Part shown: positions 1 through 17,100 of the stretch, piece by piece
Layout: every line of letters starts with the position of its first letter
How positions within the stretch are numbered: position 1 is the stretch's first letter
The notes under the pieces: model-generated
What the model was told of the DNA's origin: nothing
What the model saw: only the letters and a program-made list of their open reading frames with translations
The model's database searches: none
Source: an uncultured virus (IMG/VR IMGVR_UViG_3300017774_008765)
Taxonomy: Duplodnaviria; Heunggongvirae; Uroviricota; Caudoviricetes
Strand: one strand, 5' to 3'
IMG/VR virus record: IMGVR_UViG_3300017774_008765
Length of the DNA: 20,000 bases
Program-made: the position numbers and the translations under genes

Positions 1-428
1 TCGTCGAACCCGACGTCGTGGAGGTACAGCAGCTCCTCCGAGAACCCCGCGGCCACAAGGGACACAGGGCACTGCTCGTAGAGGCCCAGCAATTTCTCCG
101 GCAACGGGTACGGCGTCTCGAACAGACGCTCGGATTGCGTGACCGGAATCCGCTGCTCCGTCTTGACGAGGAACGGACGCACGGTCTCCATGACCGTGTC
201 GATCGCCGTCGGAGAGGAGCCGAGACGCTTGAGCAGCGCGGGAAGCCCGCCTCCCCCGCAGCCCGCGAAGCAGTACCACTGCCCCGTAGCCGCGTTGAAC
301 GAGAAGGAGGGCTTGCTCTGACCGGGGACCTCCCCGTGCAGGGGACAGTACCCCATCCAGTTGGTTCCCGAGCCCGGCCGCAGTCCGGGGATGCGCTGCT
401 GCGCAACCCGGACGACGGCACCGCTCAC
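1..428 (-). CDS. DNA primase, N-terminal part (CHC2 zinc-binding domain, DnaG-like); truncated by the window edge
   Basis: Manual translation from GTG at 428, overlapping the helicase stop (GTGA): MSGAVVRVAQQRIPGLRPGSGTNWMGYCPLHGEVPGQSKPSFSFNAATGQWYCFAGCGGGG..., matching the CPxH...PSF...WYCFxxC primase Zn finger. Frame stays open to the window edge. Directly follows a DnaB-like helicase. Confidence 0.88.
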   Translation of the reverse strand, partial: MSGAVVRVAQQRIPGLRPGSGTNWMGYCPLHGEVPGQSKPSFSFNAATGQWYCFAGCGGGGLPALLKRLGSSPTAIDTVMETVRPFLVKTEQRIPVTQSERLFETPYPLPEKLLGLYEQCPVSLVAAGFSEELLYLHDVGFD

Positions 429-1822
429 AGACGGAACATCGGCGTCCGCGGAGGACGCTTCTCTCCGCTGGAGAGGTTGTTCGGACGGCCGCCTCCCGGC
501 CCCGGCGGCGGGGCCTCCCCGTCCTGCCGGGACTTGTCCGCAAGGAACGCGCGAACGTCCACGTTGGACTGGAGCAGCGAGAAGTCCGCGCCCGGCACCG
601 CGTTGATGAGGAACGGGTTGAGCTGCGCCTCACGCATGCCGGGGAACGTCAGCATGACCGCACAGCGCCCCGTCGGCCCACGCCCACGGAAGCACCGCAT
701 GATCATGTCGGCGTCCTGGCCGATCGCGTCGGAGCCGGCCAGCTCCGCGAGATCGTCGCCCTGCGACTTGTTCGCTTCCCGGTTGGCCTGGGTGGTGCCC
801 AGCACCGGCACCTTCAGCGCGCGAGCCATCAGCTTGAGATCCTGGCTGATGTGCGCGATGTTCTTCCAGTCCGCCGTGCGGGTGTTCGTCCGACCGTCAC
901 GCATCAGGTAGAACGCGTCGCACACGACCAGATCCGCCCCGAACTTCTCGGCCTTGGCGGTCAGCGTGTCCACCGAGCCACCCTTCTTGTCGGTGTCCCC
1001 GATGAAGCACAGCGCCCGCTTCCGGGTGCCGTCCTGCGTCTGGTTCTCGATGTTCGTCAGCTCGTCGAGGATGTCGAAGAACTCGAGTTCCTTCGCCTGC
1101 GGCAGCTTCGCCGTGCGGAGCAGCTCGTAGTCCACCCCGCAGATGACCGACGCAGCGCGGCGAAGCATCGCCTCCCGGCTCATCTCTTTGGAGTAGACGA
1201 GCACGCGGCGGTTCTGCTCGTAGGCGTGGGCGGCGATGGCCGTCGCCACCCACGACTTCATGTTCTTCGGCCGACCGTAGAGCACGATCAGCTCCTCCGG
1301 CTGCATCCCACAGGTGGCCGTGTTCAGCGGCTCCCACGGGTAGGGGATGCCGGTGATGCCGCCGGCGATCTGCTTCGTCGCGTACTCCTGCCGCAGCAGT
1401 CCGGCCGCGTTGGAGATCAGGAGCCCGTCGTTGTCCGCCGAGGTCGCGTTCAGGTCCCGCAGCTTCGGCAGGTACGCCGAGAGCACCGCGAACGGGTCTT
1501 CCCCGGAGTTGAGGAGGTCCGTCATCTCCATCGTCGCCTGCTCCATCTCCACCCGCATGCGCGTGGAGAGGATGTCGTGGATCAGCGCGTCGACCGAGTT
1601 CCGGCTGGGCCGGTAGTCGAAGTTCGGGAAGTGCCGCCGCAAGCGGTCGGCGTCCGGCACCTCTCCCGGATGCGCAGGACTGTGGAACTGCTCCCACATC
1701 CACCGGAAGACCAGGCGGCCCTCCTCCGTCAGAAAAGACTCCGGCGTCAGCCCGCGCTTGCGGACCGCGCTGAAGTCACCGGTAGCAACCACGTTGCTGA
1801 TCAGTTCGAGTTCTGCGTTCAC
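425..1822 (-). CDS. Replicative DNA helicase, DnaB/SF4 family (465 aa)
   Basis: GITGIPYPWEPLN, Walker-A-like GRPKNMKS, H1a SKEMS, Walker B VVCD, ISQDLKLMARALKVPV, TQANRE and LAGSDAIGQDAD match DnaB motifs H1-H4. Confidence 0.93.
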   Translation of the reverse strand: MNAELELISNVVATGDFSAVRKRGLTPESFLTEEGRLVFRWMWEQFHSPAHPGEVPDADRLRRHFPNFDYRPSRNSVDALIHDILSTRMRVEMEQATMEMTDLLNSGEDPFAVLSAYLPKLRDLNATSADNDGLLISNAAGLLRQEYATKQIAGGITGIPYPWEPLNTATCGMQPEELIVLYGRPKNMKSWVATAIAAHAYEQNRRVLVYSKEMSREAMLRRAASVICGVDYELLRTAKLPQAKELEFFDILDELTNIENQTQDGTRKRALCFIGDTDKKGGSVDTLTAKAEKFGADLVVCDAFYLMRDGRTNTRTADWKNIAHISQDLKLMARALKVPVLGTTQANREANKSQGDDLAELAGSDAIGQDADMIMRCFRGRGPTGRCAVMLTFPGMREAQLNPFLINAVPGADFSLLQSNVDVRAFLADKSRQDGEAPPPGPGGGRPNNLSSGEKRPPRTPMFRL

Positions 1823-2098
1823 TCATAGCTCCCAGTCTGGTTCAGGGGCCCCCGGGCCTGTAGGGACGTTCGAACGCTCTTCCAGTCCCGCACCCGTGTG
1901 CAGTCCTGCTTCCACGGCCTCAAGGAAGGCGAGCGCTCGTTCCATTACGAGATCGTCCGCGAGCGGGGTCTCCCCCATCGCGAGCGGGCCGGTGAAGGCC
2001 TCGTTCGCGAGGTGGACAGTGTACCGCGCGCGCACGGTCACGAGTCCAGTGGGAAGACGCGTGATCATGACTTCGGTCGGTTCAATCGTCACTTTCAT
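1823..2098 (-). CDS. Hypothetical protein (91 aa)
   Basis: Fills the operon gap exactly. ATGA overlap with the upstream gene, and its stop abuts the helicase start. Confidence 0.7.
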   Translation of the reverse strand: MKVTIEPTEVMITRLPTGLVTVRARYTVHLANEAFTGPLAMGETPLADDLVMERALAFLEAVEAGLHTGAGLEERSNVPTGPGAPEPDWEL

Positions 2099-2430
2099 TT
2101 GCGGTGACTCGCGTCGTACGCGTCGCCCGCCATCCGGTGCGCGCCGGTGATCATCTCCTGCACGAGCATCGCGGCGACCTCGTAGGCCTCCCGGACGGTC
2201 GGCTCATCTTGCCGGCAGGCGAGGCTCACGGAGACGAACGCCCCGAAGGCGTTGCCGTAGTTGTTGTCCTTCATGTCCATCGACACTGTCACCCGAGCCG
2301 CTCCGGTCGCATCAAGCGACCGGAGGGCATCGGGAGGCAGGGCGATCTCTTCGGCAGAGAGGTTTCTCTCCTCCACCTTCTCCGGCTGTCCGGGAACCCG
2401 GATGGCCTGGCGAGATCGCCCGGGGATCAC
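2095..2430 (-). CDS. Hypothetical protein (111 aa)
   Basis: 4-nt start/stop overlaps at both ends and a protein-like composition (beta-strand then helix pattern). Confidence 0.75.
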   Translation of the reverse strand: MIPGRSRQAIRVPGQPEKVEERNLSAEEIALPPDALRSLDATGAARVTVSMDMKDNNYGNAFGAFVSVSLACRQDEPTVREAYEVAAMLVQEMITGAHRMAGDAYDASHRK

Positions 2431-2858
2431 TTCAGGTCCTTGGGCAGAGTGACGCGGGGCGTCATCTCGACCTTCTGGAGGTACTCCCCGTACACGGCGC
2501 GCAGCTCTCCGGGGAGCCGCTCCATCTGGTCGGCGCGGGCCTCGTAGTACAGCAGGCCGTACTCGACGAGCTGCTTGATGTCGCCGCGCTCCGTGGCGCG
2601 GGAGACCAGCGAGCCCACGTCCACCTTCGTGCTGGTGGGCACCTTCACGTCGAACTTCCGGCCGAGCAGGTCCACCGTGGAGCGGCCCTTGCGCAGCAGA
2701 TCCTCGACCTTCGTGCGGGTCTGCTCGGCCTCCCCGCGGAGCTCGTCGATGCGCGCGTACTCCTCCGGGTGGAGGGCCTTGAGCTCCGCGAAGATCGCGG
2801 CTTCTTCTTCCTTCAGGTTGACCAGTTCAGCGATGGCCTTGGCCAGTTCTTCGGTCAT
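2427..2858 (-). CDS. Hypothetical protein with N-terminal coiled coil (143 aa)
   Basis: Heptad-like E/L/K-rich N-terminus, strong GC3 codon bias and 4-nt overlaps with both neighbours. Confidence 0.8.
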   Translation of the reverse strand: MTEELAKAIAELVNLKEEEAAIFAELKALHPEEYARIDELRGEAEQTRTKVEDLLRKGRSTVDLLGRKFDVKVPTSTKVDVGSLVSRATERGDIKQLVEYGLLYYEARADQMERLPGELRAVYGEYLQKVEMTPRVTLPKDLK

Positions 2859-3613
2859 TTGTCGTAGGTCTCCGGACGGTGTGGAAAGCTGGATGCGAAC
2901 AAGTCGCGGTACTCCTCGTTCAACAGGGCAACGGCGTGCTTGAGGTCCTGGACCGTCTTGTACGTTTCGCCCTTCTTCTCAGCGACCAGCTGGTGATCGC
3001 CCTTCTTCAGCAAGTGACTCGGCGGGAGGAGCACCATCACCGGGTAGCGGGCCGAGCCGCCGTGCGGAGAGGGGACGACTACGTCGAGGATCTCACCCCG
3101 CTTGTCCATCGGAGAGATGCTCTTCCCCACGAGCGCGCTGGCCGCCGTCTTGCCGAATGCGAGCACGAGGAGCGGATCGACGGCGTAGATCGTCTCCATC
3201 AACCGCGTCCGGCAGTTGCCCAGTTCCGTCGAGGTCGGCGGCCGTCCTTCCGGCGTGCGGCACAGGACCGCGTTCGTCCAGAAGATGTGCCGGTCGAGGT
3301 AGCTGCGCAGGGCGTAGAAGTACTCGACGTACGCCTCATCGCTCTGCGCGCCCATCACGCGGATCTCCTCCATCTCTGGCGTCTTCGGCCAGACCATCGC
3401 CAGCATTTCCATCAGTAGCCGCCCCGAACGGCCGGCGAACGGCACGCCCTGGTGGTCTTCCTCTTCGCCTGGAACCTCCCCGATGATGAGGAGGTCGGCG
3501 CTCGTGCTGCCGGAGCCGAACACCACCTGGGACCGGCTCCGGCACAGGACCGGGCAGGCCTCGCACCGCGCGTAGGAGGTGAACAGGGCTTCGACCGCAG
3601 GCAGCCCCCTCAT
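2855..3613 (-). CDS. Uracil-DNA glycosylase, family-4-like (putative [4Fe-4S]), with atypical motif B
   Basis: CEAC...VVFGSG...IIGEVPGEEED..GVPFAGRSG...NAVLCRTP...C matches family 4 UDG motif A and the four cluster cysteines. The motif B position reads LPPSHLL instead of HP(A/S)xxL. Confidence 0.9.
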   Translation of the reverse strand: MRGLPAVEALFTSYARCEACPVLCRSRSQVVFGSGSTSADLLIIGEVPGEEEDHQGVPFAGRSGRLLMEMLAMVWPKTPEMEEIRVMGAQSDEAYVEYFYALRSYLDRHIFWTNAVLCRTPEGRPPTSTELGNCRTRLMETIYAVDPLLVLAFGKTAASALVGKSISPMDKRGEILDVVVPSPHGGSARYPVMVLLPPSHLLKKGDHQLVAEKKGETYKTVQDLKHAVALLNEEYRDLFASSFPHRPETYDK

Positions 3614-3948
3614 GCGCCGAACAGGCCGGGCAGGAGAATACTGCGCCGTGCCGTCATCATCTCGTAGGTGCGGATGAGATCCGCGTCGGTCTCTGCCGTG
3701 TAGTGCGCAGAGAGCGGAAGGTGCAGCCGCACCGGTCCCTGCGCGGGCAGGAGCGGCGCGGGCATGACCCCCACCGCCCCGCGGGCGGGGTCGGTCATCT
3801 GGAAGCGGAGCTCGATGGTGTCGACCAACACCAGCGTCTCCTTCGTCTTCTCGGCCAGAACCCCCACCAACGTCTTGCCCTGGTAGAACACGACGGTGAG
3901 GTCTTTCAGGTACGCGCCAGCGGGTTGCGGCGACGATTCGCGGTCCAT
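3610..3948 (-). CDS. Hypothetical 112-aa protein, possibly Sm/LSm-like fold
   Basis: Likely start is ATG 3948 with an AGGAG RBS. The sequence (VVFYQGKTLVGVL...LVLVDTIEL...YEMMTARRSILLPG) has an Sm1-like beta pattern. The longer 341-aa ORF call is a shadow extension. Confidence 0.7.
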   Translation of the reverse strand: MDRESSPQPAGAYLKDLTVVFYQGKTLVGVLAEKTKETLVLVDTIELRFQMTDPARGAVGVMPAPLLPAQGPVRLHLPLSAHYTAETDADLIRTYEMMTARRSILLPGLFGA

Positions 3949-5309
3949 GTAGTACTCCTGAAGGGAAACTTCTGCTGTTTCAAAAAGCCGAGGACACTGA
4001 ACGTCAGCCCGGCGGCTTCCGGGATGTTGCGATCGAGGAACAGGATCACTTCCGGCGTGCGCTTGCCGGGCGCGGCGCGCTGCACCCGCCCGATCGCCTG
4101 CCGAAGCTGGGGCGCCTCGGCGTAACCGTCTGCTGCCAGCGGTGTGAGTACAAAAAGCGAGTCCAGGTCCTTCCGGTTGTACGCCTCGGTGGCGACTCCG
4201 AACGTGGCGAAGACCAGCTTGCTGCTGTTGAGCTGCTTCAAGCGCTCCTTGCTCGGAGTCTCCCCGGTAATAAGCCCGCTTCCGGGGTACTGCTGGCTCC
4301 ACCAACGGACGTGCTCGACGACGTGACTCAGCGCGAAGACCGTACGCCCCGCCGCTATCGCTTCGTCGAGCCGAACCCTTATGGCGGCGTTCCGTTCTTC
4401 GTTGCGTCCGAGCCATGCGCGGAGGAGTCCGATGTGCCGTTCTCCACTGCGATCGGTGACCTCGCGCTCGGCCTTGTCGTCGATCGTCGTGTCCAGCTCG
4501 AGGACCTCGACCTCGGGGATCATCTCCTGCGCGTCGTCGCTGAAGAGGATTGGCCCGATGTGCGAGAGGAAGATTCCCTCGCTCCGGTCGATCCGCTTCG
4601 GAGTGGCGGTGAGCCCGAAACGGTTCCCCATGCACACGTCCGCACTCTTCACGTAGAACGAGGCGGACATGTGATGGACCTCGTCGAAGATCACCGTTCC
4701 GAAGCGGGTCGCGAAGTCCTCGGGAAGCTCCCCCGCTTCGGCGCGGCCCGCGAGGGTCTGCACCGTCGCCAGCACGACCTCGTGCTCGTAGTCCATCTTT
4801 CCGTCGCCGATGCGACCAATCTTCCCGTCGAGAAGGAAGTAGTTGTTCAGCTCGGACTCCCAGTTGTCCAGATGCGCCCCCTGCGGAGAGACGATGAGCG
4901 TCGCCTTGCCCGCGTGGGCCGCCTTGTAAAGCCCCATGATCGTCTTGCCCGCACCGCAGGCCAGATGGAGGATTCCATTCTCTGCCTTAGAGAACACCTC
5001 CCACGCGGGGACCTGCCGCTCACGCAGCTGGAACCCCGGACGGGGGCGCAGCGAGCTGCCGGGAAATTCCTTGGGGCGAAGATCCACCACGGGAATCCCC
5101 ATTTCCTCCTCGATCTGCGCCCGCGTCAGGAACGCGCGAGGCACCTCGATGTGGTTCGGGTGCTCGATGACCAGCACCCTCGGCTCGTTTGACCGGTCGA
5201 GACCGAAGGTCAGAGCCCCGCGAACGGGGCCCTCGGCGATGCGCGTCCTGGGGAGGTACAAGGACGCGGCAACGTATGCCTTGTCGGAGTCCAGGCGCGG
5301 AAACTTCAT
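3906..5309 (-). CDS. Superfamily 2 DEAD/DEAH-box helicase (XPB/Rad25/UvsW-like, 467 aa)
   Basis: Q motif LRERQ, Walker A ACGAGKT, DEVHH, motif III GLTATP, motif V-like TEAYN..DLD and motif VI QAIGRVQR. Confidence 0.93.
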   Translation of the reverse strand: MKFPRLDSDKAYVAASLYLPRTRIAEGPVRGALTFGLDRSNEPRVLVIEHPNHIEVPRAFLTRAQIEEEMGIPVVDLRPKEFPGSSLRPRPGFQLRERQVPAWEVFSKAENGILHLACGAGKTIMGLYKAAHAGKATLIVSPQGAHLDNWESELNNYFLLDGKIGRIGDGKMDYEHEVVLATVQTLAGRAEAGELPEDFATRFGTVIFDEVHHMSASFYVKSADVCMGNRFGLTATPKRIDRSEGIFLSHIGPILFSDDAQEMIPEVEVLELDTTIDDKAEREVTDRSGERHIGLLRAWLGRNEERNAAIRVRLDEAIAAGRTVFALSHVVEHVRWWSQQYPGSGLITGETPSKERLKQLNSSKLVFATFGVATEAYNRKDLDSLFVLTPLAADGYAEAPQLRQAIGRVQRAAPGKRTPEVILFLDRNIPEAAGLTFSVLGFLKQQKFPFRSTTWTANRRRNPLART

Positions 5310-5312
5310 GGG

Positions 5313-5792
5313 CTACCTCTGAAACGGATTTGGATACCGGCGGCGGGGAATGGACCGTACGCCAAACACCGCTTCCTGAAGGACGGCTTCTACGGCGCTG
5401 AGAAAGCCGTTCTGCGCAAGCGCGCCCATGAACGTATCGCCGTCCTGCACGGCAAGGCGGCTGGCATCCGGGGGCGGCGCGTAGACCTGCTGCGCGTAGG
5501 GGGGTTGCTGCGTCGAGTACGTCGGGCGGATGACCTGCGCGGTCGGTGTGCCGGTTGTGGCGATCGGCGGGGCATACGTGGGAACGGCGGCTGTGGGAGC
5601 CGTGACGTAGCCACGGCTGATCGCGTTCAGCTTCTGTTCGACGTGGTACCGACAGCTGCCCTTGACGGGGCAAACGCGGCACGTCGAATCCTCATCGCTA
5701 TACTGGCTCGGGTTCGAGTAGCATTCCGGCTTCGTGGCCACGGGCGCCGCGCTCTGGCCGAAATTCTTTCCATAGAGTCCGTCTGACGGCAA
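5313..5792 (-). CDS. Hypothetical protein with a 4-Cys metal-binding motif and P/T/Q-rich linker (159 aa); first gene of the replication operon
   Basis: TTG start with a GGAGG RBS. Motif CY-x13-CRVC-x5-C. Confidence 0.75.
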   Translation of the reverse strand: MPSDGLYGKNFGQSAAPVATKPECYSNPSQYSDEDSTCRVCPVKGSCRYHVEQKLNAISRGYVTAPTAAVPTYAPPIATTGTPTAQVIRPTYSTQQPPYAQQVYAPPPDASRLAVQDGDTFMGALAQNGFLSAVEAVLQEAVFGVRSIPRRRYPNPFQR

Positions 5793-5811: not shown

Positions 5812-5826
5812 TCTTATGTCGTAATC
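5812..5826 (-). promoter_or_regulatory. Conserved 15-nt motif GATTACGACATAAGA; candidate phage promoter, copy 1
   Basis: 13/15 identical to 11129-11143, same orientation, 19 nt upstream of the first gene of a minus-strand operon. Confidence 0.6.
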
Positions 5827-7297: not shown

Positions 7298-8037
7298 GCC
7301 TGCACCCGCACGCTCTCCGCGCTTTCGCGGACGAGCTGAGCAAGATCGCAAACACCTCGGGCGTTTCCGAGATCGGCCGGGGGCGCGAGTTCCTTGATGC
7401 GGTTCAGGACACGCCCCGCTCCGCCGGCCGGCTGTTGAACCCGATGACGATAAAGAACGAGGTCCAGGACATCTGGAAGGGGACCTCGAACCAGTCGTCC
7501 AACAACCGGGCCCTCCTCGCCGACGAGGTCTCCTCCGCCAACGAGGCGTTGGCGAAGGCCGGCAAGGGCGGGAAGTACGTGGACGACGTGCTGCACAACC
7601 AGACCGCCGTGGGCAAGCTTCGCCGGGGTGGCTGGCTCGCGAACTTCGGGAAGTACGAGGGCGGCAGCACGTTCCTGAAGGCGCGCAATGCGGTTGCCCG
7701 TGCTCTTCCGGGACAGCGCACGGTCGGCGTGGGGTTCACCGCGCTGGGCGTGCACTCCGATCTCCAGAAGCGGGACGCGACGGGCCGCGAACGCGGCGGC
7801 GCCGAACGCCTGCTCGGCGCGGGCGGAAACCTCGTGGGCGGCGTCGCCGGACTGAACCCGGTCGCGACGCGGCGCATGCTCCCCGGAAGCGGTCAGCGCT
7901 TCTTCGGCGGGGGCGCGGGATCTCTCGTCGGCGGCATGGCCACGCAGATGGCGCTCGGCGGCGCTGGGCGGTTCGCCGGCCGCAAGATCGATGAGATGCG
8001 CGGCTTCAAGCCCACCCCGCCCCCGGAGACCCCGTGA
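7294..8037 (+). CDS. Gly-rich basic protein with glycine-zipper-like segments and an N-terminal AFADELSKIA motif (247 aa); candidate internal virion protein
   Basis: LLGAGGNLVGGVAG and GGGAGSLVGGMATQMALGGAG segments; coupled to the portal by a GTGA overlap. Confidence 0.75.
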   Translation: MSLHPHALRAFADELSKIANTSGVSEIGRGREFLDAVQDTPRSAGRLLNPMTIKNEVQDIWKGTSNQSSNNRALLADEVSSANEALAKAGKGGKYVDDVLHNQTAVGKLRRGGWLANFGKYEGGSTFLKARNAVARALPGQRTVGVGFTALGVHSDLQKRDATGRERGGAERLLGAGGNLVGGVAGLNPVATRRMLPGSGQRFFGGGAGSLVGGMATQMALGGAGRFAGRKIDEMRGFKPTPPPETP

Positions 8038-10148
8038 ACTTTGTCGGAACCAACGTCGATAGCGGGGATCGGTTCAACACGAAGCTCTCCGGTGCCGGGG
8101 GGCGGAGCTTCGGCGTTCGCTATCCGTCGCCGTTCTTCGATGTCGCGCAGCAGTACCTGCCCGGCGACATCCACCAGCTCCACCACTGGTGCCGCTTCTA
8201 CTTCCTGACCAACCCGATCATCAACGTCGCGGTCAGCAAGATGGCGGAGTACCCCGTCACGCCAATCATCTTCGACACCGACGACCCGGAGAAGAAGAAG
8301 CTCTACCAGGGACTGGAGGAGCAGCTCAACATGCGCCAGTTCCAGGTCGAGATCGGCCTGGACCACTTCGCGTACGGCTCGGCCTTCGTGTCGATCTACT
8401 ACCCGTTCGTGAAGTACCTCGTCTGCAAGGGCTGCAAGGAGCGCTACCGCGCCGACGCGAACCGTTCGCTCTACAAGTGGCGCAACATGCGCTTCCGGCT
8501 CAAGTGCCCGAAGTGCAAGACGGACGACTACGCCGAGGAGCGGGACGTCTACATCCGTTCGATCCGGGACGTGCGCCTGGTGCGCTGGAACCCCGAGAAC
8601 ATCGACATCAAGTACAACGAGATCACGGGGGAGAGCCGGTACTTCTACCGAATCCCGAAACCCATCCTGAACGACATCACGATGGGGGATCCCGACACGA
8701 TCGAGAAGCTCTCGATCGAGTTCCTCGACGCCGCGCGCCGGCGGAAGGCGCTCCGGTTCTCGCCGGACAACATCTTCCACCTCAAGCGTCCGACGATCGC
8801 GCAGAAGGATCAGGGCTGGGGGATGCCGCTGATCTACCCGCTCCTGAAGGACGCGTTCTACCTGGCCGTGCTCAAGAAGGCCCAGGAGAGCATCGCGATG
8901 GAGCACATCGTGCCCCTGCGCATGATCTTCCCCGGCCCGTCAACCGGAGGCAACGACTCCCCCTACGGCAGCTACAACCTGTCGAACTGGAAGTCGAAGG
9001 TCGAAGCCGAGCTTTCGTTGTGGAAGCGGGACAACAACTACATCCCCATCCTGCCCGTGAACATCGGCTTCCAGCAGTTCGGCGGCGACGCACGGGCGCT
9101 GATGCTCCACTCGGAGCTGCGGCTGGTCGCCGAACAGATGCTCGTCGGCTGCGGCATCCCCATCGAGTTCGTCTTCGGCGGGCTCTCCTGGTCGGGCAGC
9201 AACACGTCGCTGCGCGCGCTCGAGAACATGTTCCTCGGCTACAACCGGCAGCGCCGGCGGCTGGTGAGCGACTTCATCTTCGGCAACATCGCCGCCTACA
9301 TGCGGTGGCCGAAGGTCGAGTGCCGGTTTGACCGCTTCAAGATGGCGGACGACCTCCAGCGCTCCATGTTCTACCTCCAGCTCAACCAGGCGCTCAAGAT
9401 CAGCGACAAGCGCCTGCACGAGGAGCTGGGAGAGGACACGGAGACCGAGGTGAACCGGATGCGCGACGAGATGAAGATCCAGCTCGGCGTGCAGCGGACG
9501 ATGCAGATGGCCACGGCCGACATCCAGGGCGAGGCGTCGCTCCGCACGTCGCGCTACCAGATGAAGACGCAGGAGCTCCAGAGCAAGGCGCAGATGGAGC
9601 AGCAGGCGCAGATGCAGCAGGCCCAGATGCAGATGCAGCAGCAGCAGCAGGCCCAGGGGGGAGACCCCACCCAGGCCCAGCCGCCGCCCGCCGATCCGAA
9701 CGCCCCGCAAGCGCAAGCGGGGGCGCCAGATCCGAACCAGCAGCAGCAGCCTGCTCCGTCCGCCGACGGACAGGCTGCCGCCCAGCAGGTGCCGGGGATG
9801 CCCGAGGGGGCAACGGTGTACGCCGAGAACGGGCAGCAGGCACCCGGGCAGGGCCTTCCCGTCGCCATGGCGGGGATGGCCTCGCCGCTGAACCAGAACA
9901 GCGGGGGGATCGACCTGCGCTACCTGGCGACCCGCGCCAAGGCGTTCCTCGACACCATCGCCGAGGAGCAGGGCGAGATGGCGGTGCAGCAGAACCTCAT
10001 GCGGATGCGGGCCGAGAACCCGGCGCTCTACCAGCTGGTGAACCAGCTAAGGAACGAGGGCGGGTCCAAGGTCAATCCCATGGACGCCGCCTCCGCGCCC
10101 GTACCGGCGGGCGGCTCGCGCCGCACCGCCGGGCGGACCATCGGGTAA
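8034..10148 (+). CDS. Phage portal protein with an inserted Zn ribbon and Q/P/A-rich C-terminal tail (704 aa)
   Basis: Portal-type succession: TNPIINVAVSKMAEYP, IGLDHFAYGSAFV, WNPENIDI, NIFHLKRP...GWGMPLI, ++ CGIPIEFVFGG and helical wing/crown segments. Insert CKGC...CPKC. Confidence 0.8.
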   Translation: MNFVGTNVDSGDRFNTKLSGAGGRSFGVRYPSPFFDVAQQYLPGDIHQLHHWCRFYFLTNPIINVAVSKMAEYPVTPIIFDTDDPEKKKLYQGLEEQLNMRQFQVEIGLDHFAYGSAFVSIYYPFVKYLVCKGCKERYRADANRSLYKWRNMRFRLKCPKCKTDDYAEERDVYIRSIRDVRLVRWNPENIDIKYNEITGESRYFYRIPKPILNDITMGDPDTIEKLSIEFLDAARRRKALRFSPDNIFHLKRPTIAQKDQGWGMPLIYPLLKDAFYLAVLKKAQESIAMEHIVPLRMIFPGPSTGGNDSPYGSYNLSNWKSKVEAELSLWKRDNNYIPILPVNIGFQQFGGDARALMLHSELRLVAEQMLVGCGIPIEFVFGGLSWSGSNTSLRALENMFLGYNRQRRRLVSDFIFGNIAAYMRWPKVECRFDRFKMADDLQRSMFYLQLNQALKISDKRLHEELGEDTETEVNRMRDEMKIQLGVQRTMQMATADIQGEASLRTSRYQMKTQELQSKAQMEQQAQMQQAQMQMQQQQQAQGGDPTQAQPPPADPNAPQAQAGAPDPNQQQQPAPSADGQAAAQQVPGMPEGATVYAENGQQAPGQGLPVAMAGMASPLNQNSGGIDLRYLATRAKAFLDTIAEEQGEMAVQQNLMRMRAENPALYQLVNQLRNEGGSKVNPMDAASAPVPAGGSRRTAGRTIG
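9565..9850 (+). repeat. Low-complexity CAG-rich (Q/M/A/P) coding tract in the portal tail
   Basis: QELQSKAQMEQQAQMQQAQMQMQQQQQAQGG...QQQQP. Confidence 0.8.
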
Positions 10149-11128: not shown

Positions 11129-11143
11129 TCTTATGCCGTTATC
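11129..11143 (-). promoter_or_regulatory. Conserved 15-nt motif GATAACGGCATAAGA; candidate phage promoter, copy 2
   Basis: 13/15 identical to 5812-5826, 41 nt upstream of the ATG at 11087. Confidence 0.6.
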
Positions 11144-11145
11144 CG

Positions 11146-11154
11146 TGTTAGCCT
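11146..11154 (+). promoter_or_regulatory. Extended -10-like element TG-T-TAGCCT upstream of the RNAP gene
   Basis: Fits TGnTAnnnT and ends 7 nt before the ATG at 11162, which has no Shine-Dalgarno sequence. Confidence 0.35.
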
Positions 11155-11161
11155 TTGCCCC

Positions 11162-14100
11162 ATGCCGGACATCAATCCCGAGGCCGAGTTCGAGAGCGTC
11201 AAGCAGAAGGCGCTCGATGCGATCCGTCAGCAGTTCCCCATGTCCGGCAAGCTCAACCGCCTGGAGCTCGTGGGACTGGAGGCGAAGGACGCCCTGCACG
11301 TCGACGACGTGACGTCGCAGTACAAGAAGAAGGTCGAGGGCGGAACGTGGTCCGTTCCCGTGCGCGCCCAGCTCAAGCTGGTGGACGTGCAGACCGGGAA
11401 GACGCTCGACTCCGGAACGGTCACCCTGGCCCAGATCCCCAAGATTACGCGGCGCTACACCTACATCGTCGAGGGACACGAGCGGCAGCACGACTCGCTC
11501 TTCCTCCTCAAGCCTGGGATCTACCACCGCGTCGCGGACAACGGCGACATCCAAGCGAAGTGGAACCTCCAGAAGGGGCGTAACTTCGACCTCCTGATCG
11601 ACCGGGCCACCGGCCGTATCACGATGAAGATCAAGACGGCGGAGGTCCCTCTCTACTCGGTGCTCAAGGCCCTGAACGTGGCCGATGGGGACATCGAGCA
11701 GGCGCTGGGCCGGCAGGTCTTCGAGAAGAACCGGGAGCGCACCAGTTCGAAGGACCTGGTGAAGATCCCGAAGACCCTCTCCGACGGGCAGGACGCCAAG
11801 CGCACCGCGGCGGCCCTCCACCCCGACGAGGCCGCGACGAAGGTGCGCGATCTGTTCGCCCAGACCGCGACCACGCGGCCGGATGGAGACACGCACTCGA
11901 CGCTCGACGTCGCGTTCACCTCGGTGACGGGCCCGGCGCTCCTCGAGTCGGCGAAGCGCATCCTGCAAATCTCTCGCGGAGAGAAGGAACCCGACGACCG
12001 CCAGTCGCTTGGCGCCAAGGACATCCACGGCACCGCGGAGTTCGTCGAGCGGTTCATCACCCGCGCGAAGATGGACGTGACGCGCAAGATCGTGGCGCGC
12101 ATCGACAAGTCCGCCAAGCTCACGGACCTGCCGGTCAACAACCTCTACACCTCGCCCATCAACGGGACGTTCCGCAACGCGCAGTTCCCCGAGCAGCACA
12201 ACCCGCTCGGGTTCTTGTCCGGTCACCTGCGCACGACGATCGTCGGGGCCGACTACGGCGGGGTGAAGGGCGAGGACGTGAACCTCTCCGAGGACAAGCT
12301 CATCAACCCGTCGCACATCGGGTTCCTCGACCCGGTACAGACGCCCGAGTCGGCGGTGACGGGCATCTCGCTCCACCTCCCCATCGGCGCGCGCAAGAAG
12401 GGCAAGCAGCTCGTCACGCGGGTCTGGGACGTGAAGAAGAAGAGCTTCGTCGAGGTCGCGCCGCAGCAGCTCGAGCGCGCCGTCGTGGCGTACCCTGACC
12501 AGGTGGAGTGGAAGAACGGGCAGCCCTCCCCGCGCGAGCCGGAGGTCGTCGTCTACGACAAGGACCGCACGACCGGCCGCCGGAAGTGGGCGGAGGTCGA
12601 CTACGTTCTCCCGTCGGCGAAGGCGCTGTTCTCGTTCTCGGCCAACCTCGTCCCGTTCCTGTCCACCAACTCCGGCGGCCGCGCGATGATGGCGGCCAAG
12701 CAGCAGGAGCAGGCGATCGCGCTCAAGCACCGCGAGGCGCCGCTCGTCCAGACGAAGACGGACGGCACCGCCACCTTCCAGCAGCTCGTCGGGCAGTTCG
12801 CATCGCACAGCTCGCCGGTGGACGGCACCGTCACCAAGGTCGAGGCGGACGCGATCTTCGTGAAGGGAGCGGACGGCACCACGAAGAAGGTGCCGATCTA
12901 CGACCACTTCCCGCTCAACGGCGGGAAGGACATGATGCACGCCACGCCCCTGGTCAAGCCGGGCGACACGGTGAAGAAAGGCCAGACGCTCGCGGACACG
13001 AACTACTCGAAGGACGGCCAGTTCGCGGTCGGAACGAACCTGCGCGTCGCGTACACTCCGTTCCACGGCCTCACGTTCGAGGACTCGATCATCATCTCGC
13101 AGTCCGCGGCCGAGAAGCTGACCTCCGAGCACCTGCACGAGAACTCGGTCACGCTCTACCCGGGCATGTCGCTCAACAAGCGGCTCTGGCAGAACTACGC
13201 CATGCCCGAGCAGACGAACCCGCAGCGCATGGGCAAGCTCGACGAGGACGGCATCATCAAGCAGGGCCAGAAGGTCGAGCACGGGGACGTGCTGGTGGCC
13301 GTGCTCGCGGAGACGCGCCACAATCCGAACGACGAGGCGGCGAGCATCTCGAAGAAGCTCATCCGTCCCTACGACACCCGTCACTCGGTTCTCTGGGAGC
13401 ACGACTACCCCGGCGTCGTGGCCAAGGTCGTCCGCGCGGGCAAGACGATCCGCGTCTACGTGCGAACCGAGGAGCCGATGACCGTCGGCGACAAGCTGAC
13501 GGGGCGCTACGGCAACAAGGGCATCGTCGGGACGATCTTGCCCGACCACGAAATGCCGCACGACACGGACGGCAAGCCGGTCGAGGTCATCCTCGGCCCC
13601 GCCGGCGTCCCGAGCCGCATGAACGTCGGGCAGCTGCTTGAGACGACCGCCGCGAAGATCGCCAAGAAGACCGGCCAGAACTACGTCGTCGACAACTTCC
13701 AGCCGGGCGTGGACTACACCCAGAAGGTCAAGGACGACCTGAAGAAGCACGGGCTCTCGGACACCGAGGTCCTGCTCGACCCGAAGACGAAGCGCCCGAT
13801 CGGCGAGATCCTCACCGGGTTCCAGTACCTCCACAAGCTCCACCACCAGGTGGACAAGAAGATGACCGCGCGCTCGCACGGCGGCGCGTACGACGCCAAC
13901 GGCGAACCGCCGAGCGGCTCGGGGATCCCCGGCGGCGGGCAGACCCTCGACCAGCTTGCGACCTACGCGATGCTCGCGCACGGGGCCTACGCGAACCTGC
14001 GCGAGGCGCAGACGTGGAAGTCCGACCAGGATCAGGCGGACGTGTGGATCGCGCTCCAGCAGGGGCGTCCTCTGCCGGACCCGAAGCCGAACCGCAGCAT

Positions 14101-17100
14101 GGGCAAGCTCATCGGGTACATGCGCGCGATGGGCATCCACATGGAGAAGAAGGGCGACAAGTACGCCCTCGCCCCGCTCACCGACCACCAGGTCAAGACG
14201 TTCAGCAACGGGGCGATCGACTTCCCCAGCAAGACGCTCACCGCCAAGGGGGCGCGTACCCTCGAAGACGTGGGCGGCCTGTTCGATCCAAAGAAGACCG
14301 GCGGCATGGGCGGGAAGTACTGGACGCACATCCCGCTCGCCGAGCGGATGCCGAACCCCGTGTTCGAGCGGGCGATCCAGGCGCTCACCGGGATCGACAA
14401 GAAGACCTACGAGCAGATCACCGGCGGCGCCGCGGCGCCGGAGGCGGGGAAGACCGGCTTCCAGCGGATCGTCCACGCGCTCGAGCAGGTCGACGTGGAG
14501 AAGGAGATCAAGACGCTCGACCAGCAGCTGCCGAAGCTCACCGGCAGCCGGCTGGATCGCGCGTACCGCCGCATGCGCTACCTCAAGGCGCTCACGAAGC
14601 TCGGCGTGAAGCCGGTGGACGCGTACACCACGCAGAACCTCCCGGTGCTCCCGCCGGAGATGCGGCGCGTCATGGTCGGCATCGACGGCAGCCAGACGAT
14701 CGACGACCTCAACGTGCTGTACAAATCGGTCGGGCTGCTCAACGAGCAGGTGAAGAAGGCGGACCCCAAGCTCCCGCCCTCTGAGAAGCAGAAGCTCCAG
14801 GCCGACCTGTACCACTCGGTGCGGCAGCTGCGCATCACCGGCCTTGAGATGGGGCAGGGCACCAAGGAGCGCCACCACCGAGGCCTCATGGAGATGATGG
14901 AGGGGACGAAGACCTCGTTCTTCCAGTCCTCCGTCATGTACCGCCGGCAGGATCTCTCCGGGCGCTCGACGATCATCACCGCCCCGCACCTCGGACTGGA
15001 CGAGGTCGGCGTTCCGCAGCCGATCGCGTTCGAGATGTTCAAGCCGTTCATCGTCAAGGAGCTCGCGCAGTCGCACGGCAAGACGCCGGCCGAGGCGAAG
15101 AAGCTCGTGGACAAGAAGGACAAGCTCGCGCTCGAGGTCCTGCACAAGGTCACCGCCGACCGTCCCGTGCTGCTCAAGCGCGATCCCGCGCTCCACAAGT
15201 TCTCGATCATGGGGTTCAAGGTCCGTGTCACCGACGGCAAGGCCATCGGGCTGCACCCAATGGTGTGCGCCGGGTTCAACGCCGACCACGACGGGGACAC
15301 GATGGCGCTCTACGTCCCGCTCGGAAAGGAAGCGGTGGACGAGGCGCACGGCATGCTGCCCTCAAAGAACCTCTTCTCGCCGACCACCGGGCGCATCATG
15401 CCGGTGCCGGTCCAGGACGGCGTCCTCGGGCTGTACCACGCGACGAAGTGGGGCGAGAAGAAGAACGTAAAGGTCACGTCCCGCGACGAGGTGCTCAAGC
15501 TCTACAAGGACGGGAAGCTCCACATCTCGGACGTCATCACGTTGGACGGGAAAGAGACCACGCCGGGGCGCCTGCTCCTGGCGGGTGAGTTGCCCAAGGA
15601 GATGCAGAACAACGACAAGCTCCTGCACGACAAGGACTTCCGCATCGCCAAGGGCACGTTGAACACGTTCATGTCGGAGATCGGCAAGAAGCACCAACAG
15701 GACTACGCGCGCGTGGCCGACGCGTGGAAGAACCACGGCAACCGCATCGCCTACGAGAGCGGCTCGAGCTTCTCCCTCCACGACTTCCACGACGCCAAGC
15801 CGATGCGCGACGCAATCCTCAAGAAGTACGAGGCGGAAGAGAAGGCGGTGCGCGCGTCGAAGCTCTCTGACAAAGAGAAGAACGACAAGATCGTCGAGAT
15901 CTACAGCAAGGCGGGGCAGGAGATCGAGGAGAAGGGAAAGGCCCACTACAACAACTCCGACAAGAACCGGCTCTACGATTGGATCGCCGCCGGCGCGCGC
16001 GGCGACTGGAACCAGTTCCGCCAGATGACCTACGGACCGCTGCTCGTCGCCGACCCGAAGAACCGCGCGGTGCCGGTGCCGATCACCAAGTCCTACGCGG
16101 AGGGCCTGCCCATCTCGCAGTACTGGACCTCGATGCACGGTGCCCGAAAAGGGGCGATCGACCGCTCCGCCGGAACGGCCGAGCCCGGCGCGCTCACCAA
16201 GGTCATCATCAACACCGTCATCGACCACCAGATCTCCGCCGAGGACTGCCACACCACGAAGGGCGCGCACCTCTCGCTCGACGACAAGGACGTGCACGAC
16301 CGCTACCTCGCGCAGCCCGTCCACATCACCGGCGGCAAGGACGTGCCCGCGGGCACGTTGTTGACCGCGCCGGAGATCACCCACCTCAAGGCGGCGAAGA
16401 TCACGCAGGTCGTCGTCCGTTCTCCGCTGCACTGCGCGCAGTCCAAGGGCGTCTGCGCGCGCTGCTACGGCTTGAACGAGAACGGCAAGCTCTACCACAC
16501 CGGCACGAACGTCGGCGTCATCGCCGGACAGGCGCTCGGCGAGCCGGTCACCCAGCTGGCGATGCGGACCTTCCACACCGGCGGCACCGTCGGATCCCAG
16601 AAGGGAACCGGCTACGAGGCCGACGCGTTCGAGCGCGTGAAGCAGCTCTTCAAGGTCCCGGAGAAGCTGCCCGGCGCCGCGACGATCGCCATGAAGGCCG
16701 GCACGATCACCAAGGTGGAGGCGGACAAGGCGCGCGGCGGGCACGTCGTCCACGTCGAGGACCACGCCCACCACGTCCTCGCGGACCGTCCGCTGCTCGA
16801 CCACATCAAGCCCGGCCTGAAGGTCGAGGCCGGCCACGCGCTCTCGCAGGGGCCGATCAACCCGCACCACCTCCTCGAGGCGACGAAGAACCTCAACATC
16901 GTCCGCAAGTTCATGACCGACGAGGCGCTCCGCTACTACCCCTCCGGGACGCGGCGGCGGAACGTCGAGACGGTCGTGAAGGCGATGACGAACGTCACCA
17001 AGATCGACCACGCGCCGACGGACAGCCACTTTGCCCGTGGCCAGCTCGCCGCGCTCTCCGAGGTCGAGCACTACAACCTCGAGGCGAAGAAGAAGGGGCA

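Follow-up and report, generated by a model that had tools for sequence, protein, structure and literature searches.

A fused beta-beta' RNA polymerase of an uncultured virus lacks the beta' zinc-binding domain and probably initiates transcription with a sigma factor from its own contig

How does a viral RNA polymerase find its promoters when the residues with which bacterial polymerases hold sigma have been replaced? The question is raised by the window analyzed here, which spans the 20,000 nucleotides at the end of a virus record of 77,530 bases (42% complete by CheckV) and carries beta and beta' in a single gene (Table 1). The initial annotation of this DNA held that the sigma-interaction surfaces had been lost and that the enzyme does not use host sigma70, leaving promoter recognition either intrinsic or dependent on an unknown phage factor. 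We favor a different reading, to which we assign a probability of roughly 0.8: the one-chain enzyme, devoid of the zinc finger, starts transcription with the contig's own sigma factor, seated on a remodelled clamp coiled coil.

Residues of the polymerase are numbered from the ATG at 11162, which is also the consensus start of the family. A homologue search listed 120 long relatives, 88 of which were aligned with the query to give 89 family rows; those set aside were mainly of intein length or partial. For bacteria, E. coli rpoB, rpoC and rpoD were taken from an annotated record, and the beta' N-terminus was compared across 81 bacterial rows (E. coli plus the best 80 of 601, mostly Proteobacteria). 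The Asp triad and two beta Lys residues read D, D, D, K, K in all 89 family rows, pointing to a bacterial-type multisubunit core, and a fold search with a segment of the polymerase confirmed the likeness to beta, without yielding a residue map of the clamp. The family consensus of the catalytic motif is NADFDGD, of which the query has a variant (Table 1); Salmonella phage Arash and Vibrio phage D69 have AADYDGD. No alpha subunit of viral origin was detected with the rpoA model (TIGR02027) in five records, three of them complete, with 11 of 14 controls positive. Elsewhere the contig encodes a family A DNA polymerase, RecA, DnaB and baseplate genes. Directly upstream of the polymerase, a 704-amino-acid gene (8034-10148, plus strand) has no Pfam match, and the portal gene of Arash sits in that position. 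A replication block on the minus strand (3-5792) includes a DnaB-like helicase (425-1822), a uracil-DNA glycosylase (2855-3613) and an SF2 helicase (3906-5309), and a lone GACATAAG lies at about 5813-5820, immediately upstream of it.

Table 1. Positions of the polymerase, its landmarks, the sigma gene and a promoter-like site
Feature	Position	Strand	Remarks
Fused beta-beta' RNA polymerase, 2059 aa	11162..17341	+	Single open frame; beta Pfam domains, then beta' domains
Promoter-like site CAAA-N16-GGCATAAG	11130..11157	-	Points away from the polymerase gene; 1 of 3 in the contig; function putative
Beta flap-tip helix region, residues 721-735	13322..13366	+	Shortened, divergent; predicted contact with the phage sigma
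Remnant of the beta' N-terminal zinc-binding domain, G1038-H1056	14273..14329	+	Without Cys; 32 residues shorter than in E. coli
Clamp coiled coil, residues 1182-1226	14705..14839	+	Fold kept, surface changed
Clamp L1193 (= R275)	14738-14740	+	Alignment; predicted contacts with sigma A90 and A93
Clamp L1212 (= E295)	14795-14797	+	HHalign; predicted contact with sigma A93
Catalytic motif NADHDGD	15278..15298	+	Three Asp invariant, 89/89 rows
Second beta' zinc site (C1696, C1758, C1765, C1768)	16247..16465	+	Each Cys in 88/89 rows
FliA/WhiG-like sigma70-family factor, 274 aa	G000:C1:20896-21720	+	Gene calling; outside the window, same contig

The absence of the four-Cys zinc-binding domain, one of the observations on which the initial annotation was built, is borne out by profile-profile alignment with the 81 bacterial beta' N-termini. 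There, GLFDPKKTGGMGGKYWTHI falls on the bacterial GLFC...MGHI segment (GLFD...HI against GLFC...GHI), and the CxC...CxxC segment is a gap. Counted from G1038, whose codon begins at 14273, the distance from G to H is 18 residues, compared with 50 in E. coli; it is 18 in 80 of the 89 family rows and 20-24 in the other nine. The segment has no Cys in any family row, and all four Cys are present in 80 of the 81 bacterial rows, the remaining row being a gap. A structure model of the polymerase (residues 642-1292, from 55 sequences, mean pLDDT 83) renders the remnant as a short turn followed by a strand (block pLDDT 93-97). The second beta' zinc site is intact, as had likewise been noted, its four Cys corresponding to C814, C888, C895 and C898 of E. 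coli. What the deletion means for sigma is another matter. E. coli RNA polymerase without the zinc domain retained sigma70 activity on lacUV5 and lost sigma28 activity (bioRxiv 2020.01.02.893370), and because the deleted enzyme stayed active with sigma70, loss of the domain is no argument against sigma binding. By analogy with E. coli, then, the zinc domain is not a sigma-binding determinant; sigma28 transcription there depends on it in part, and E. coli itself could not be made zinc-finger-free (bioRxiv 2020.01.02.893370). The idea that the deletion is a hallmark of all phage beta/beta' enzymes was ruled out by the enzymes of YerA41, Carin-5 and TM30, which retain the four Cys.

To call the sigma-interaction surfaces lost proves an overstatement. 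Both clamp helices are retained in the model (1182-1198 and 1206-1226, block pLDDT 78-96), and the flap tip is still modelled as a helix, albeit a short one of low confidence (pLDDT 53-77); it is the surfaces that appear remodelled. In E. coli, R275 of beta' pairs with D403 of sigma70. The earlier reading of both R275 and E295 as Leu is secure for the first position, which aligns gap-free with L1193 from N266/Y269, and alignment-dependent for the second, which is L1212 by HHalign. A pairwise BLAST alignment equating E295 with E1208 needs two gaps and was rejected in favor of the one-gap profile alignment, with which the predicted contacts agree. Arg is found at the R275 position in 80 of 81 bacterial rows and in none of the 89 family rows (Met 20, Ala 18, Ile 12, Ser 11, Leu 10, Val 9, Thr 8, Gln 1), and Glu occupies the HHalign E295 position in 2 of 89. 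Further along the clamp, for which we worked from a published list of sigma-core interface residues (PMC10216364), Q1196 corresponds to R278 and S1219 to A302; of the 89 family rows, 65 have Ala, Gly or Ser at the A302 position and 35 have Asp or Glu at the M298 position. Since R275Q and E295K impair formation of the E. coli holoenzyme (bioRxiv 2020.09.07.285775) and both positions have changed across the family, it is plausible that this polymerase does not use host sigma70, as the initial annotation supposed.

Not everything on these surfaces has changed. N266 and Y269 are invariant in all 89 rows and N276 is often kept. The flap-tip helix, which had been called divergent, is so in the query protein, where it is about four residues shorter, but the family keeps an E898, L901/L902, I905-like pattern (Glu at the E898 position in 55 of 89 rows; Leu, Met or Ile at L901/L902 in 70; Ile, Leu or Met at I905 in 65). 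Together with the preserved coiled-coil fold, such conservation would suit a polymerase that binds its own sigma without being insulated from the host, accepting sigma70 as well. The uniform absence of Arg at the R275 position tells against that arrangement, and its fortunes depend further on the promoter-like motif considered below.

A search of the rest of the genome for a sigma-like gene, suggested at the outset as a check, turned one up on the same contig. Its product scores 33.5 bits against Pfam Sigma70_r3, above the cut-off of 25.3. All 16 of its NCBIfam matches are to sigma models and all lie below their cut-offs, the best being FliA/WhiG (E 2.7e-9), where it fails the subfamily cut-off at 37.1 bits against 189.6. 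HHalign pairs it with E. coli sigma70 over regions 2-4 at 98% probability. The top Foldseek matches of its structure model (pLDDT 92) are the sigma chains of holoenzyme entries (E about 1e-8, TM 0.3-0.46), so that regions 2, 3 and 4 are supported by profile and by fold. The family comprises 469 representatives at E <= 1e-30, and a member is present in 11 of 11 polymerase-bearing viral records at least 90% complete. Of the 61 viral records with this polymerase, 50 were compared (the other 11 being short contigs) and 24 of these have a sigma match, as do 2 of 5 of a further set. In 6 of 27 sigma-profile matches (L162, L164, L165, L173, L174, L175) the match runs across a single stop codon that probably precedes the true start. 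Near the sigma N-terminus (G000:C1:20896-21000), 77 of 115 homologues carry a K-x-A/S word in their leader, compared with 27.9 expected from shuffles, 34 of the 149 aligned sigma rows having been skipped in this count; the word could be a head-maturation cleavage tag.

The phage factor that the initial annotation left unknown has a candidate here, a recognizable sigma70-family gene with changes in region 2.2. The other option, promoter recognition intrinsic to the single chain, is not supported given this gene, and sigma-independent recognition was dropped once it had been found. One might still argue for such recognition, or for recognition through a non-sigma phage factor, from the changed zinc domain and docking residues and from the existence of single-chain and highly divergent phage polymerases (described in PMC7481178). 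Against this, the contig and every near-complete relative encode a full region 2-3-4 sigma, the coiled coil has been preserved, no large DNA-reading insertion was seen in the clamp or flap alignments, and even in the phiKZ enzyme a sigma-like subunit is bound to the clamp helices, according to the account in PMC7618050. We consider sigma-independent recognition extremely improbable.

The core-facing surface of the phage sigma has changed as well. D403 and Q406 are listed among the core-binding sites of sigma (in bioRxiv 2020.09.07.285775). Across an alignment of 149 sigmas (the query plus 11 of the 18 matches of one search and 137 of the 150 of another), Asp is never found at the D403 position, where Ala (94) and Val (29) predominate; the Q406 position is Ala in 84 rows and Gln in 2, 86 rows retain E407, and 54 have Lys or Arg at the N409 position. 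The figures for M298 and N409 would suit a charge swap in part of the family, but the commonest interface change here is from polar to hydrophobic. Across 27 genome-matched pairs, the R275 position is never Arg and the D403 position is Ala in 23, Val in 3 and Gly in 1; weak sigma matches in two genomes (G044 and G051), probably other sigmas, were dropped from these statistics. Polymerase and sigma distances correlate over the 27 pairs (Mantel r 0.73, equalled in 0 of 5000 permutations), a result that shared descent alone would also give.

The residue mapping was fixed before the predicted complex (polymerase residues 577-1272 with sigma 38-274) was available. The predicted complex scored 0.78, compared with 0.00 for the best control, with a partner pLDDT of 84 and at least 95% of contacts shared between runs; the mark applied to this score is reached by 116 of 157 solved pairs and 2 of 215 mismatched pairs. 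Its tightest contacts include L1193 with sigma A90 (the D403 position) and A93 (the Q406 position), and L1212 with A93, and the interface also holds flap residues 721-735 and residues of sigma region 4. The score indicates likeness to the many solved holoenzymes, on which the prediction may draw, rather than binding. Taken together, alignments and model indicate a remodelling of the sigma-docking surfaces rather than their loss, accompanied by corresponding substitutions in region 2.2 of sigma.

A phage sigma need not serve a phage polymerase. It could instead reprogram the host core, in the style of T4 gp55 or phiEco32, leaving the phage polymerase to use something else; phage sigmas acting on host core are common (as surveyed in PMC7824862), and E407 is kept in more than half of the aligned sigmas. 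The loss of D403 and Q406, while R275 (80 of 81 rows) and E295 (invariant) are maintained in bacteria, speaks against this, as does the constancy with which the sigma accompanies the polymerase in near-complete records. Arash, moreover, has a second, RpoS-like sigma, gp196, which the query does not share and which looks the better host-core partner. This protein (L091:10516-11553), which retains Asp at the D403 position and is a weak match to the family profile (E 6e-5), may partner the host core. We regard a host-core role for the contig's sigma as very improbable, and return to its pairing with the fused polymerase.

The cultured phages closest to this system are instructive. Among 50,697 deposited phage records, the sigma matched only Arash and the Vibrio phages D69, D181 and D148, which rank 1-3 and 5 among polymerase matches in deposited phages. 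Like the query, Arash has an orthologous sigma (31% identity, E 5e-21) and a related -10-like motif, and Arash and D69 have beta fused to beta', the same zinc deletion (GGLFD..TGG..G..WSH) and a hydrophobic residue at the R275 position. They differ in that the C-terminal half of beta' is a separate gene in Arash (OQ632216; polymerase gp206 and gp216, sigma gp10), D69, D148 and D181, whereas the query enzyme is one chain. In a tree of 28 rows (unrooted, its bacteria mostly Proteobacteria), the fused enzymes, Arash and D69 lie on one side of a branch with 99/99 support, apart from 11 bacterial rows, YerA41, Carin-5 and TM30. The fusion, the zinc deletion, the orthologous sigma and this branch place the query in an Arash-like clade. 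The virion proteome reported for Arash lists gp206, gp216 and the sigma gp10; the preparation also held ribonucleotide reductases and RNA ligases, and the authors allow for carry-over (PMC10585845). The parts of that paper concerned with these proteins list them without mention of the zinc domain, the interface or promoters.

Other multisubunit-type polymerases share less. A bacterial holoenzyme with a group 3 sigma (FliA/WhiG, sigma32) has in common with the query the Asp triad, the two Lys, the second zinc site, the lid, the coiled coil and the flap, as well as sigma regions 2, 3 and 4 and the docking of sigma2 on the coiled coil, which is predicted here; the query differs in having no zinc domain, in the replacement of polar interface residues on both sides, in a sigma without W433/W434 and Y425, and in the lack of an rpoA match noted above. 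The mReC and other phage beta/beta' enzymes (PMC7481178; YerA41, Carin-5, RHph_TM30) are likewise phage-encoded, and in our small tree are alignable homologues that lie outside the bacterial rows. YerA41, Carin-5 and TM30, unlike the query, have unfused genes on a separate branch in addition to their four Cys, and none of the small genes upstream of these three polymerases matches the sigma profile. The mReC group of Weinheimer and Aylward (2020) is marked by its own polymerase clade, capsid VOG11186 and terminase VOG01069. None of its 97 contigs corresponds to the loci studied here when records are compared by dataset identifier and length, and the mReC annotation table mentions sigma nine times, with no full sigma factor evident in it (PMC7481178). 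The non-virion polymerases of phiKZ and AR9 lack alpha and, as described in PMC7618050, bind a sigma-like subunit of their own at the clamp helices; they have four core chains and a subunit unrecognizable as sigma by sequence, where the query has one chain and a recognizable sigma70-family factor. The lineage treated in PMC12619734 has no polymerase. We found no paper on the zinc loss, interface or promoters of this enzyme, in a literature search with the preprint and Arash supplements and most subscription papers outside its coverage.

What might such a holoenzyme read? In the 137.7-kb genome of Arash, all 37 GGTATAA sites lie on the minus strand, the strand of the non-structural genes. Upstream word counts gave GGTATAAG in Arash and in another relative, G024, and GTCATAAG in a third genome, G002; no clear motif emerged from word enrichment in the query contig (G000) or in G003 alone. 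In G024 (L202-L210), both strands of 178 kb are free of G[CTG]CATAA, and because this genome uses GGTATAAG instead, the -12 base differs between members of the clade. The two-part pattern BAAA-N15-17-G[GCT]YATAA, which was drawn from the same genomes, has 3 occurrences in the 42%-complete query contig, where Markov controls give 0.05, and 18 in G002, where they give 0.45. A previous version of the pattern gave 61 matches (some with overlapping starts) in 30 other records, against 27 for the reversed pattern, with none in 8 of the records; this out-of-sample excess is modest. The upstream A-tract is weak in Arash (7 versus 1.7), and a blind two-part word scan placed the motif first in one of five genomes (G002) and outside the top matches in G000, G003, G024 and Arash. 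The spacing resembles that of sigma28 promoters; the exact sigma28 consensus has no sites in G000 or G002. We regard the element as a candidate promoter, a non-sigma70 promoter-like motif that recurs across the clade.

This motif bears directly on insulation from the host. Were host sigma70 accepted by a polymerase that also binds its own sigma, the motif could be a variant extended -10 element, of the TGn-TATAAT type, read by the host holoenzyme, and in keeping with this a T precedes 22 of the 37 Arash GGTATAA sites, giving TGGTATAA. A T at -7 is, however, near-invariant in sigma70 promoters, and the base that follows GGTATAA in Arash is G at 29 sites and T at one; in the query contig and G002, moreover, the hexamer is CATAAG. 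We judge a non-insulated pair improbable. Like a host-core sigma and intrinsic recognition, it is less well supported than a private pair of polymerase and sigma.

We suspect, then, that the single chain adopts a bacterial-type core fold, that the phage sigma would dock on it through contacts of sigma2 with the coiled coil and of sigma4 with the flap, hydrophobic Leu-Ala packing standing in for the bacterial polar contacts, and that the resulting holoenzyme would open promoters bearing a GG/GY-YATAAG element ahead of non-structural genes. That the pair reads this motif seems to us probable. It is also likely, if slightly less so, that the pair is carried in the virion, a conclusion that we draw from the virion proteome of Arash and from the position of the polymerase gene in the plus-strand block. 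The loss of contact residues on both sides leads us to expect, with somewhat less assurance again, that cross-reaction with host sigma70 and host core is poor; the part of the interface that is conserved (N266, Y269 and sigma E407) could nevertheless permit some cross-binding with host partners. The full picture, a virion-delivered holoenzyme of two proteins without alpha, omega or zinc finger, orthogonal to the host through an interface turned from polar to hydrophobic on both sides, is a tentative proposal whose chances we place a little below even.

The contact between sigma2 and the coiled coil, and the zinc finger, are kept in the bacteria sampled here, and a whole phage lineage has dropped the finger and rewritten both contact faces. 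The lineage is, in effect, a natural test of the requirements for sigma-dependent initiation. It raises the question of how a group 3-like sigma with a weak -35 element operates without the zinc domain by which E. coli compensates for such an element. Arash provides a cultured relative, a phage of Salmonella, in which the system is testable now. If the pair is orthogonal, it would offer synthetic biology a transcription system of two genes; if it is both orthogonal and delivered by the virion, it would amount to a minimal sigma-dependent polymerase found in nature, with a promoter class of its own and shared by a large lineage of phages.
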